Under the pieces are notes generated by a model, which worked only from the letters and a program-made list of their open reading frames with translations, did no database searches and was not told the DNA's origin. This document shows positions 24,631 to 27,483 of a stretch of DNA of 64,000 nt, piece after piece. Location: contig OZ244905.1 of NCBI GenBank assembly GCA_965221695.1, positions 416,001 to 480,000 on the forward strand, given 5' to 3'. Numbering within the stretch: position 1 is the stretch's first letter; every line of letters starts with the position of its first letter. A program made the translations under genes and the position numbers. Origin of the DNA: Gammaproteobacteria bacterium. GTDB lineage: Bacteria > Pseudomonadota > Gammaproteobacteria > Eutrophobiales > Eutrophobiaceae.

Positions 24631-25005
24631 TTAAGCCCCCCATCGCGGGCAGTGCCCCCTGCCCATTGATGTAAATGGTGCCCAGGGCCGGACTTGAAAG
24701 TAAGCCATAACTAATTGTTTAGTAGGTTCTTTTATAAGCTATTGGTTCTTAATACCGCCATATATACCGACAACGTTATAAGTAGGATTTGAGCCTTAAC
24801 CAAATTTTTTGATCCGAGTCCTTTTGCTCAGATAAAAGGGTGTAAAGAATGTGAAGCCCGCCCGAACAGCCCCATAGATGGGAGCTAAAAGCCAGAAATT
24901 CTCAAATAACGTTTAGCTAGAGACTATACGTTTCAGGTCAGATGCAAATTTAACGAGCTTAGAGTTTGAACCGCCCCGGGAATCCCGGAGACTCGTTAGT
25001 TTGAG

Positions 25006-25905
25006 TCATGCGGCTATGCATGACCGGTTAATCTCATCATAGTACATCTGTTCATATTCAGCCGGCGGCACATTGCCGAGCGGCGCCAGCAAACGACGAT
25101 GATTGAACCAATCCACCCATTCCAAGGTGGCATATTCCACATCATCGAGTGTCTTCCATGGCCCCCGTGCCCGGATTACTTCCGTCTTATACAAGCCGAT
25201 GATCGTCTCCGCCAACGCATTGTCATAGGAATCCCCCACACTGCCCACAGAGGCCTCAATCCCGGCCGCCGCCAAGCGCTCGGTATAGCGGATCGACAGA
25301 TACTGACTGCCGTGGTCACTGTGATGAACCAACCCCTTGGCGCCGTGCCGTGACCACAACGCCTGCTCCAATGCGTCCAGCGCCAGGTCGGCGCCCAAGG
25401 AACGGCTGACCCGCCAGCCCACGATGCGCCGAGCATACACATCCACCACAAACGCCGCATAGGCAAAGCCCGACCAGGTCGCCACATACGTGATGTCCGC
25501 CACCCATAACCGGTTCGGCCTGTTGGCGGTAAACTGCCGGTTCACCCGGTCAGCCGGCTGCGGCAACGACGCATCACATACCGTCGTCCAGCGCTTTGCG
25601 CCCCGCCTCACACCCTGTATCTCAAGCTGCCTCATCAATCGCTCCACCGTGCAACGGGCCACCGCCTGGCCTTCCCGTTTGAGTTGCCGCCAGACCTTCC
25701 TGGCGCCGTATACCCGGTAATTCTCATCCCAGACACGCCGTATCGCCTCACATAACGCCTGGTCACGCCGCACCCGCGCCGGCAACCGCCCAGGGTCCGC
25801 TGCCCGAGCCTTGTGCTCGTAGTAGGTCGACGGGGCGACCGGCAACTGCTTGCAGATCGGCTCGACCCCAAGGGCCTCCCGGTGTTGGTCGATAAAGGCT
25901 ACCAT
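25006..25905 (-). CDS. IS3 transposase OrfB (DDE)
   Basis: [22 protein letters not shown]. Confidence 0.95.
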
Positions 25906-25913
25906 CTCGCCAG

Positions 25914-26225
25914 TTAGCGGTCGAGCTCCGCCTGGGCGAAAAAAGCCGATGCCTTGCGCAGAATCTCATTGGCGCGCTTGAGTTCCCGATTCTCGCGTTC
26001 CAAGGCCCGCATGCGGTCACGCTCGACGCTGGTCAGGCCGGCGCGTTCGCCCTGGTCAACCTCTGCGCGTCTCACCCAGTTACGCAATGTTTCCGCTGTG
26101 CAGCCAATCTTATCGGCGATGGAAGTCAGCGCCGCCCACTGTGAGCGATAGGTCTCCTGATGCTCTAGGACAAGGCGCACGGCCCGTTCCCGGATCTCCG
26201 GGGGATAGCGTTTGTGTTTGTTCAT
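25914..26225 (-). CDS. IS3 transposase OrfA (HTH)
   Basis: [13 protein letters not shown]...ETLRNWV...[19 protein letters not shown]. Confidence 0.95.
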
Positions 26226-26889
26226 TGCTCCATCCTCTCAAGAAATGGAGCCTCCGGCAAATCCGGGGCGGTTCAGTTTACACTTTCAATATCAGTTACT
26301 AATTCCTCATATTGCCCATATTTCTGTTGTAATTCTTGGGGAGTGATACCAGTTTTGTCTTGCTCGTCATACCACGCCCTGAATTTTGCTTGCCATTCTG
26401 TCAGGTGGGGACGAAGTCCATCGTTCAAAACATTTAAGGCGACGTCTGTCAGATGCTCAATGCTTCCTTTATCTACACCATGCAGTTTCTCTACAGGAAT
26501 GTCTCTTATCAGCTCTCGAACAACTCCAAATAGTGTGTACCAAGAGTCGTACACCTGAACTATTACATCTTTTTCACGCTCAAATGGTAGTGCTGCTTTG
26601 CGAGTCACCAGCTCAGTCCAAATTTGATGGGCTATCAGTTTTTCTTGATAATTTGCGGTGATCTCAACAGTGCCTGTATTGAATGGCATATTTATGGTAA
26701 TGGTACCGGCTTGACGATTTCGCACTTTCCGAAAAAAAATCCACCAAACTATGCCGATAACGATCAATATAATTGCCACTGCAACCAAGCTGATGGTGAT
26801 ATTTAAGTCCAGGCCATCAATATTTATTGCAAGTAAATTAATGTCTAGCAAGTAGGGTAAATTTTTACCAGACTCTATCCCTTTAGCGT

Positions 26890-27483
26890 TCAATGAGTTA
26901 CTCCACAAACATCACACTTACGATTATAACTCCACATATCTCCAGGATTAGAAATCAAATTTGATCTAGTCGCTCTGGAAACGAATGCATCCTCAATCCA
27001 AGATCTGAGCTCCTGAGCGCTAGATGGGTATTTATAGCAACGCGCATAACAGCCACTGTTCGTATCATGCCAGTTAAGAGCCAAGCGCTCAGGTATATAT
27101 GCTCTACCGTAAGTGCTTGGCAACCCGATACCTATTAATCCGTGTGGCAATTGGCCGCCTAAACCGCCTCGTTGTAAAGATGCCTTAATTTCCCAGTCCA
27201 CATATCTCCTGCTATGGGTGCAAGTTCCTATCAAAACTATCATCACCGTAGAGTGGCCAAAATGCCGACTTCGAATAGCCTGCATGACGTAATTAGGGTT
27301 AGTGCTATTGATAATATCAGTTCCATAGCTCTGATAGGAATTAAGCATCACCGGAGTAAAGACATGCCTGAAGTCGTTGACGAAGTTGTCGACTTCAATC
27401 TGATCACCGTGGTAGTAAGAAATAAAGCAATTGCGCTTTGTTATCTGAAGGCCAGACAAACCGCTGTTGAGTAGTCCAGCCAC
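26890..27483 (-). CDS. TIR-like domain protein (Thoeris ThsB / MTH538-DUF1863 type)
   Basis: CFISYYH, STVMIVLIG..THSRRYVDWEIKASL with catalytic Glu. GTG start after GGAG. C-terminal CxxC..H. Confidence 0.88.
   Translation of the reverse strand: MAGLLNSGLSGLQITKRNCFISYYHGDQIEVDNFVNDFRHVFTPVMLNSYQSYGTDIINSTNPNYVMQAIRSRHFGHSTVMIVLIGTCTHSRRYVDWEIKASLQRGGLGGQLPHGLIGIGLPSTYGRAYIPERLALNWHDTNSGCYARCYKYPSSAQELRSWIEDAFVSRATRSNLISNPGDMWSYNRKCDVCGVTH

Follow-up and report, generated by a model that had tools for sequence, protein, structure and literature searches.

A probable Thoeris-type gene pair with a candidate membrane effector on a tRNA-Leu island of a gammaproteobacterium

Here we describe a pair of overlapping genes in the genome assembly of a Gammaproteobacteria bacterium of the family Eutrophobiaceae (GCA_965221695.1, contig OZ244905.1), found within a stretch of 64,000 nucleotides (positions 416,001 to 480,000 of the forward strand) that we call the window and whose own numbering is used below for every position in it. 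The first gene encodes a ThsB-type Toll/interleukin-1 receptor (TIR) protein, and the second, called gene 2 throughout, encodes a small protein with one predicted transmembrane (TM) helix and a conserved core that annotation libraries do not recognise. The reading that we favour, and consider fairly probable, is that the two genes form a Thoeris-type anti-phage module on a small island, in which a signal made by the TIR protein would be read by the gene 2 product as a membrane effector, the local copy being probably inactive. Judged from gene neighbourhoods, gene 2 fills the effector slot of a Thoeris-type system, because the same clade of TIR proteins pairs elsewhere with TIR-SLOG or with SLATT proteins.

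Linkage of gene 2 to TIR genes and exchange of partners

Linkage was counted in the best 80 of the 257 species-genome loci that contain a relative of gene 2 (single loci are labelled L and single proteins P where a name is needed), and TIR genes were called by phmmer with the window TIR together with Pfam and PADLOC calls on the neighbours. A TIR gene stands within 150 bp of gene 2 and on the same strand in 65 of the 80 loci (40 upstream, 15 downstream, 10 on both sides), so that a separate effector gene conserved in an operon with a TIR, an arrangement by which Thoeris systems are recognised, is what we find here. Somewhere in the locus a TIR is present in 77 of the 80, in 12 of these farther off, seven of the 12 having the order TIR-Nmad2-gene 2, and phmmer finds a relative of the window TIR itself in 72. 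The preliminary description of this DNA, made from its letters alone, had proposed co-occurrence with TIR genes as a check, and the check comes out in favour of the pairing. As for the three loci lacking a TIR, two are cut by the contig end at gene 2 and the third (L010) places gene 2 beside a STAND NTPase-WD40 gene. Where a TIR gene adjoins upstream it often overlaps the start of gene 2 (31/50).

More than one TIR gene accompanies a single gene 2 in 25 of the 80 loci, 24 having two and one having three, which would correspond to the multi-sensor, one-effector layout of Thoeris. The richest row was seen on an Aureispira plasmid (L088; NZ_CP133672.1, 44630-55034), where four TIR genes, a gene with a nucleoside 2-deoxyribosyltransferase domain and a gene 2 relative stand in one row adjoined by cas6/cas1, which may represent an array of several sensors and two effectors. 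In two actinobacterial loci a NUDIX gene stands in front. A gene for the nucleotide modification associated domain 2 (Nmad2, PF18753) recurs as a third gene in L002, L014, L037, L058, L066, L071 and L075 (at about 3200..5000 in each), and also occurs in metagenomic TIR loci (L117:2340-3005 and L131:2325-2990); its product might alter the signal or be an effector in addition to the first, and our literature search found no paper on the bacterial Nmad2 domain. With regard to the wider surroundings, 150 of the 596 flanking open reading frames (ORFs) of the 80 loci were sampled, and in this count, made without a control set, 47 matched PADLOC models at 1e-8 or better, 27 of them TIR-type and 20 of other kinds; the latter include Hachiman HamB, AriAB, restriction enzymes and methylases, PD-T4-7 and mad3, and CRISPR genes also lie nearby elsewhere.

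The reverse survey, starting from the TIR, covered the best 80 of at least 583 metagenomic relatives of the window TIR (46-69% identity). As the adjacent same-strand gene we found a member of a TIR-SLOG cluster, defined by single-linkage BLAST, in 44 loci and a gene 2 relative in 24; two loci had both, two had SLATT (L176 and L181, the partner in L176 carrying SLATT_1 and SLATT_3) and eight had neither, several of these eight being cut by contig ends. All eight tested members of the TIR-SLOG cluster (about 680 aa) carry SLOG PF18163 (1e-54 to 1e-66) together with TIR_2. The TIR-SLOG-paired loci often have an additional gene upstream, which codes for another small TIR in 13 loci and for Nmad2 in 7; a cluster of eight ORFs of 221-254 aa lies upstream of the TIR, seven of these loci being TIR-SLOG-paired, and both of the 221-aa members tested are Nmad2 proteins. 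On a maximum-likelihood tree of 81 TIRs, from whose change count ten rows with both or neither partner were left out, the partner changed at least seven times, compared with a mean of 22 after shuffling, and none of 200 shuffles was as low; the well-supported branches alone force at least two changes for TIR-SLOG. The window TIR falls in a clade of five (Shimodaira-Hasegawa-like approximate likelihood ratio, SH-aLRT, 98), all of them paired with gene 2, and the sister clade is TIR-SLOG-paired. One TIR cluster with several alternative neighbours is also the argument by which, in the part of their preprint available, Yirmiya et al. 2025 (10.64898/2025.12.03.692087) call new effectors. Taken as a whole, the pair is likely to be a real, widespread and under-described Thoeris variant.

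The two proteins and the gene 2 family

The preliminary description had recognised the first gene as a ThsB/DUF1863-type TIR with its WEI glutamate, and library models agree: the protein matches PF08937 (ThsB_TIR) at E 1.5e-15, with 57.9 bits against a cut-off of 21.2, the PADLOC ThsB models at 2.7e-9 and PADLOC PDC-M50B at 1.7e-8. Its catalytic-type glutamate is E102 in the motif RRYVDWEI, and an alignment of 27 TIRs (that of the window and 26 adjoining gene 2 relatives) shows no variation at D100, W101 and E102, so that the ThsB-type TIR with a catalytic glutamate that belongs to a Thoeris system is present in the window. As to the extent of the gene, which had been given as ending at 27483, an alternative GTG start does lie there, and we have taken the longer form from a TTG at 27495.

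The possible metal site that had been noted in the TIR tail (C193-x2-C196-x3-H200) has gained support from co-variation. Of the TIRs compared, 14 of 14 with a C-T-H motif ahead of the catalytic loop (C92 and H94 in the window TIR) have a C-x2-[C/H]-x3-H tail, versus 0 of the 13 that lack this motif; of those 13, eight have C-T-W and a single terminal Cys, and five have neither. Because these Cys/His ligands appear and vanish together, we are led to suggest that four to five of them form a putative zinc-type site that would tie the tail to the active-site region in this ThsB subfamily.

Gene 2 overlaps the TIR gene by 19 nt, and its start is supported by a Thalassotalea homolog that begins MWSNAL. 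Before the insertion described below, its protein comprised 227 aa (211 + 16 codons), with a single hydrophobic stretch at residues 30-63 (core about 41-63), which agrees with the one TM helix first reported. No Pfam, PADLOC (E up to 1), NCBIfam or PHROGs model matches it, and the library scans revealed no SIR2, Macro, SLOG, SLATT, caspase or other family, in accordance with the earlier statement that SIR2, Macro, SLOG/STALD and caspase motifs are missing. A Pfam scan of 24 family members at E up to 10 returned scattered weak helical-repeat matches only.

The family is large all the same: 526 clusters were found at E <= 0.001 among 783 candidates, with a precomputed Pfam domain in none of the 120 listed, and 504 representatives remained at 50% identity, 62 of them below 1e-30. 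Relatives are encoded in 257 species genomes (257 of 263 pattern matches), and wherever RefSeq names them the name is 'hypothetical protein'. The 80 loci come from Gamma- and Alphaproteobacteria, Acidobacteriota, Bacteroidota, Bacillota, Planctomycetota, Actinomycetota, Verrucomicrobiota, Nitrospirota, Spirochaetota, several candidate-phyla-radiation (CPR) groups and one metagenome-assembled genome (MAG) labelled as an archaeon. Phage records gave no match to the family; among viral contigs six gene 2 loci were found from 126 pattern matches, and among plasmids two records.

Along the family alignment the N-terminal ~35 residues are variable, and by a crude measure one hydrophobic segment is present in 88 of 111 sequences and two in 21. 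Lysine plus arginine per 15 residues averages 0.81 before the hydrophobic segment and 2.48 after it, and because of this excess the conserved core is placed in the cytoplasm. This core, at about residues 75-227 (~140 aa), is highly conserved, with R103, S122, F127, R131, N162 and R166 invariant in the 111 sequences and A93, E99, T102, K104, D114, Y120, W123, H168, W179 and a P-Q-E-x-Q motif nearly so.

A TM helix is missing from four family members (P0235, P0264, P0266 and P0262), in which the same core follows N-terminal stretches of another kind, 110-190 aa long and without a family match. Because of them the core behaves as a module, in keeping with a sensor module. For P0262 a sequence search of the PDB gave no match. 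The same search with the family profile gave as its best match a designed coiled coil (E 0.0076), which is not meaningful, and one longer, fused form, a 584-aa protein with sugar-transferase domains, is a single sequence and probably an artefact.

Known Thoeris systems, proposed mechanism and rival explanations

How far the pair differs from described systems was judged largely against the available part of the preprint cited above (10.64898/2025.12.03.692087), whose type descriptions are used in what follows. Type III Thoeris combines multiple TIR proteins with a SLOG-domain effector (van den Berg et al. 2024, Cell Host & Microbe 32:1427, as cited there), and its signal is given as uncharacterised. 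The window TIR lies within the ThsB clade that accompanies SLOG effectors, and gene 2 loci share accessories with it (second TIR, Nmad2), but the gene 2 protein has no SLOG or TIR domain by Pfam, being instead a 227-aa single-pass membrane protein, and the island holds no SLOG gene. Kinship between the gene 2 family and TIR-SLOG was considered and rejected, since hhalign against 25 TIR-SLOG proteins gave a probability of 0.24, which is not significant. The local alignment that it returned pairs gene 2 residues 156-211 with about 586-639 of TIR-SLOG over 50 columns at 26% identity, including an 'LT-x-WQ' motif, and is probably due to chance.

Type VII consists of ThsB and ThsH, a SLATT protein with two TM helices, and signals by canonical cyclic ADP-ribose (cADPR). 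It resembles the present pair, whose effector role and helical core are putative, in having a membrane effector with a cytoplasmic helical part, and two TIRs of the window clade pair with SLATT; the gene 2 protein differs in matching neither SLATT nor DUF4231 and in the single hydrophobic segment of most members. Types II and V, namely a Macro-TM effector responding to His-ADPR and ThsF (DUF2270, three TM helices) responding to 3'cADPR, share the logic that we propose for gene 2, in which the cytoplasmic domain of a membrane protein reads a TIR signal and membrane damage follows, but gene 2 matches neither Macro nor DUF2270 (PF10028), and the TM count and domain order differ. Type VI pairs ThsB with ThsG (DUF6650, PF20355), has 2'cADPR as its signal, and comes closest in design: ThsG, with a core of about 150 aa and optional N-terminal TM helices, is likewise a small effector of undescribed fold, with or without an N-terminal TM, beside a ThsB TIR. 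Here the difference is that no sequence or profile similarity to gene 2 is detectable and that the conserved motifs are not the same.

The Pfam scans, covering gene 2 and the 24 family members, also gave no SIR2 or SLOG as in ThsA of type I, no Macro as in type II, no peptidase as in the caspase-like protease of type IV, no PF10028 as in type V, no SLATT or DUF4231 as in type VII, and nothing corresponding to the CMP-hydrolase-TPR, ion-channel and hydrolase effectors of types VIII, X and XI. As far as sequence comparison reaches, gene 2 fits none of the ten Thoeris effectors that the preprint describes in words; its type IX effector ThsJ and 18 untested effectors lie outside this comparison. 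Our literature search on Thoeris types, effectors and associated domains found no description of the gene 2 family. In the text available of Wang et al. 2024 (PMC11350192), which reports the E. coli systems TIR-I to TIR-IX, the partners cannot be matched to gene 2, and a NAR 2026 article (PMC13069673) concerns, in the part available, other systems. The PADLOC candidate PDC-M50 (PADLOC-DB v2.0.0) is similar in that the window TIR and many partner TIRs match PDC-M50B. It was rejected as the identity of the pair, since gene 2 matches neither PDC-M50A nor any other PADLOC model and a PDC-M50A protein was met in one of 20 upstream genes tested, a single locus (L019) where it is an extra gene upstream of the TIR; the literature search found no paper on PDC-M50. 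The earlier proposal of a new Thoeris-like system therefore stands in its TIR linkage, its effector slot and the lack of any library match, while the word 'new' is less secure in view of type IX and the 18 untested effectors; the pair is new with respect to annotation libraries and to the Thoeris types described in words, and its novelty with respect to the full preprint catalogue is uncertain.

The mechanism that we envisage is drawn from the parallel with Thoeris effectors that bear TM helices (types II, V, VI and VII). Upon infection, the TIR protein would make an NAD-derived signal of the ADP-ribose type; the cytoplasmic core of the gene 2 protein, with its invariant or nearly invariant Arg, His, Trp and Tyr residues, would bind this signal; binding would drive self-association; and the N-terminal helix would then breach or depolarise the membrane and so stop the infected cell. 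The type III signal or an isomer of cADPR may serve as the signal, and the former and canonical cADPR are the first candidates because the window TIR is kin to type III-linked and SLATT-linked TIRs. A bolder proposal goes further and takes the core as a new receptor fold for a TIR-made nucleotide signal, defining a new class of Thoeris effector that extends over many phyla, CPR and at least one archaeal MAG and that, given its alternation with TIR-SLOG effectors within a single TIR clade, would read the type III signal; this we put forward tentatively, as possible and on balance doubtful.

Several points weigh against the module that we favour or against its novelty. Signal binding, oligomerisation and membrane damage are all taken from analogy. 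For the core, a periodicity test, itself crude, points on weak evidence to a short beta-hairpin behind the membrane helix and to amphipathic helices thereafter: a helical signal appeared at 66 of 150 core positions compared with 34 +/- 11 in shuffles and was equalled by one of 300 shuffles. In the partner survey, 32 of the 50 ORFs of the TIR-SLOG cluster reach 600 aa or more and eight were Pfam-checked, and in the two loci with both partners the ORFs assigned to that cluster measure 180 and 183 aa. The flank count, being uncontrolled, falls short of demonstrating an enrichment of defence genes. In L010 (L010:1095-5633) gene 2 follows a 1296-aa nSTAND1-WD40 protein and no TIR was detected, which hints that the effector can couple to a different sensor. 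As for novelty, we judge the chances to be about even that the family already appears in the preprint catalogue as an unnamed 'TM protein', and small that it is ThsJ of type IX.

A further objection is that cell killing might be the work of the TIR itself, with gene 2 as its sensor or regulator. In its full form the roles would be reversed, the TIR being an NAD+-depleting killer and gene 2 its sensor, anchor or inhibitor, for instance sensing phage entry or envelope damage and thereby freeing the TIR to act, with no diffusible signal read by gene 2. In CBASS, Pycsar, pAgo and Avs, TIR domains do serve as NADase effectors, and the available text of the preprint (10.64898/2025.12.03.692087) raises the TIR as killer as a caveat for unverified configurations; the frequent overlap of the upstream TIR gene with gene 2 would suit a stoichiometric, fixed-ratio complex, and gene 2 has a variable, probably periplasmic N-terminal segment, variability being common in sensor surfaces. 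Yet it is the cytoplasmic core and not the outside segment that is most conserved, TM-less versions exist, the TIR proteins are small single-domain ThsB types of which several often accompany one gene 2, and their clade pairs with the signal-reading effector types TIR-SLOG and SLATT. We therefore regard such a reversal as unlikely.

Still on the side of signal reading, gene 2 might be a very divergent DUF6650 protein (ThsG), so that the pair would be a remote branch of type VI Thoeris using 2'cADPR. Besides the similar design (10.64898/2025.12.03.692087, in the part available), this is favoured by the ESM Atlas feature search, in which, with either of the two homologs tried, the 30 nearest clusters included DUF6650 as their sole Pfam-named set: P0031 scored 0.77 at rank 16 with a cluster in which 13% of members carry DUF6650, and P0056 scored 0.80, with 171 shared features, with a cluster in which 90% do. 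A single weak hhalign segment moreover pairs the stretch just before the first conserved helix of both families. By the tool's own statement, however, Atlas scores below 0.9 are leads only; the profile-profile probability was 0.13-0.14 (E 0.33-0.44) under four settings; hmmsearch and jackhmmer produced no cross matches, the best E being 2.4 in 388 proteins; PF20355 had no match at E up to 10 in the whole genome and was absent among the 25 listed of the 31 families matched by the 24 gene 2 members. On these grounds a hidden relationship to ThsG appears distinctly improbable to us. Lastly, the pair might not serve defence at all and be instead a module for stress or for NAD or nucleotide signalling that is linked to the membrane, or an addiction pair of the toxin-antitoxin kind carried on mobile islands. 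Its defence role is a proposed one, and the module sits on a mobile island and is often broken, by an insertion here and by two in-frame stops in a Thalassotalea MAG. The TIR nevertheless belongs to the ThsB family, the neighbours include restriction-modification, Hachiman, PARIS-type, Avs2 and CRISPR genes, and the partners are swapped with known Thoeris effector types, which leaves a role outside defence highly improbable.

The island, the local copy and the meaning of the family

The pair had been described as a two-gene operon in a tRNA island, and both parts of this hold, given the gene overlap, the tRNA-Leu, the 24-nt repeat of its 3' end and the low G+C (Table 1). Between the two tRNA-Leu 3' repeats the island measures 3493 bp, with 39-45% G+C (the insertion sequence, IS, at about 63% excepted) versus 56-60% in the glycolate-oxidase gene flank and beyond the tRNA. 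From low G+C and from the absence of its DNA from related genomes (neither island DNA nor its genes were found in the 40 searched, 22 of them of the same genus), we conclude that this is by these signs a small island horizontally acquired by integration at tRNA-Leu, with no integrase left. The TIR gene and gene 2 are each single-copy in their own genome. Going away from the tRNA, the order is Avs2 fragments, a solo IS end, the TIR gene, gene 2, an IS3 element and the tail of gene 2.

Table 1. Features of the island and of its insertion sequence (positions in the window unless stated otherwise)
Feature	Position	Strand	Details	Basis
thsB-like TIR gene	26890..27495	-	201 aa, TTG start; alternative GTG start at 27483, 4 codons inside	PF08937, PADLOC
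Gene 2, 5' part	26276..26908 (ORF with stop 26273..26908)	-	211 native codons; variable N-terminus, one TM helix, conserved core	ORF, hydropathy
Gene 2, severed 3' end	24913..24963	-	16 codons (24963..24916) and stop; SKLVKFASDLKRIVSS then stop	translation
IS3-family element	24967..26275		1309 bp; orfA 25914..26225 (-), orfB 25006..25905 (-)	domains, inverted ends
Target-site duplication	24964..24966 and 26276..26278		AAC (- strand), 3 bp	
Other copies and fragments of the IS	G000:C1 187837-189142, 2302883-2304188 (full); 1682079-1682405, 1619259-1619312 (fragments)		93-100% identity	
Solo IS end between TIR start and Avs2 remnant	27565..27583		19 nt, 100% complementary to 26257..26275	
Avs2 (AVAST type 2) C-terminus remnant	27580..28033	+	two fragments/frames with stops	PADLOC, NCBIfam, translation
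Promoter-like site upstream of the TIR gene	27641..27668	-	TCGACA, 16 nt, TATATT; 10/12 consensus matches	
tRNA-Leu(UAA), island integration site	28169..28255	-		ARAGORN
Direct repeat of tRNA-Leu 3' end, far island edge	24675..24698; partner 28168..28191		24 nt, 96% identical	repeat search

The element that interrupts gene 2 has the marks of the IS3 family, that is, two transposase ORFs (orfA with HTH_Tnp_1, orfB with rve/HTH_21), terminal inverted repeats (39 nt, imperfect, 74% complementary) and a 3-bp target duplication. The TGA stop of the 211-aa gene 2 ORF is formed by the first three bases of the IS. That the IS had clipped the last 16 aa, and that the 227-aa protein could be recovered, was already stated in the preliminary description and is borne out by the tail SKLVKFASDLKRIVSS, which fits the C-terminal pattern of the family, e.g., ...GRLASFSDDLKKIVSS in P0002, the closest full-length relative. 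Past the cut, all the 110 other members of the alignment (A5) have at least 10 more residues (median 19), and conservation at the hydrophobic positions there is 74-100%. Because the IS removed the C-terminal amphipathic helix that all other members examined keep, the local copy of gene 2, and with it the module, is probably inactive. Three full copies of the IS at 99-100% identity, besides two fragments, are present in the own genome, on account of which the IS appears to have been recently active.

Contigs from sequencing runs support this structure: X1 and X2 bridge both IS junctions, the right one being crossed in X2 by just 11 nt, X3 crosses the left junction by 13 nt, and no IS-free joint occurs in the contigs of any of four runs, the junction-crossing X1-X3 representing three studies. 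Among the listed runs that contain the stretch there is no RNA run. One contig of run X2 passes from 24698 to 28209 by way of 17 other letters, at depth 6 and with a shorter side of 24 letters; it may be an island-free tRNA-Leu site or the tRNA-Leu of another organism, and is too short to interpret. Outside this genome, the closest of the 80 genome loci, when ranked by the E-value of gene 2 (47% identity), is that of the Thalassotalea MAG, and its gene 2 (L001:5001-5720) has two in-frame stops, one at the invariant W123, beside a TIR 62% identical to that of the window; either another copy has been inactivated here or the assembly may be at fault.

Close to the pair in the window lie the Avs2 remnant and, just past the tRNA-Leu, a gene for a 384-aa AAA_14/DUF4143 ATPase (28364..29518, minus strand) that matches the PADLOC single-gene candidate PDC-S01 at 1.5e-82. 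The Avs2 remnant comprises the last ~150 codons and runs on the strand opposite to that of the TIR gene and gene 2, with PADLOC Avs2 matches of 4.5e-12 and 1.8e-11 over profile positions 1358-1497 of 1504 and an NCBIfam Avs2 match of 3.1e-7. Its 5' edge coincides with the solo 19-nt end, which is that of the IS also interrupting gene 2, and this suggests that an IS-mediated deletion removed most of Avs2. Upstream of the TIR gene, the promoter-like site amounts to no more than a match to the consensus and is not significant alone, the scan having returned 7 sites versus 4.8 +/- 2.2 expected. With its cut gene 2, Avs2 stump and solo IS end, the island gives the impression of a decaying defence locus, and for its own genome the pair is a decayed relic of little functional consequence.

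For the family the implications are wider. Thoeris systems offer one of the principal views of TIR signalling, and they have signals in common with the immunity of plants and animals. That annotation libraries fail to recognise a widespread family of probable effectors means that such systems are currently missed in genome annotation, and if the core of gene 2 is indeed a new signal-binding module, the list of nucleotide receptors would be extended. The putative zinc-type site, which would tie the TIR tail to the loop ahead of the catalytic glutamate, could bear on how these TIR sensors are switched on. The alternation with TIR-SLOG and SLATT on one TIR clade further offers an experimental route to the uncharacterised type III signal by effector cross-activation, and, should the new-receptor proposal prove true, gene 2 would provide a small and tractable protein with which the type III Thoeris signal may be captured and identified.

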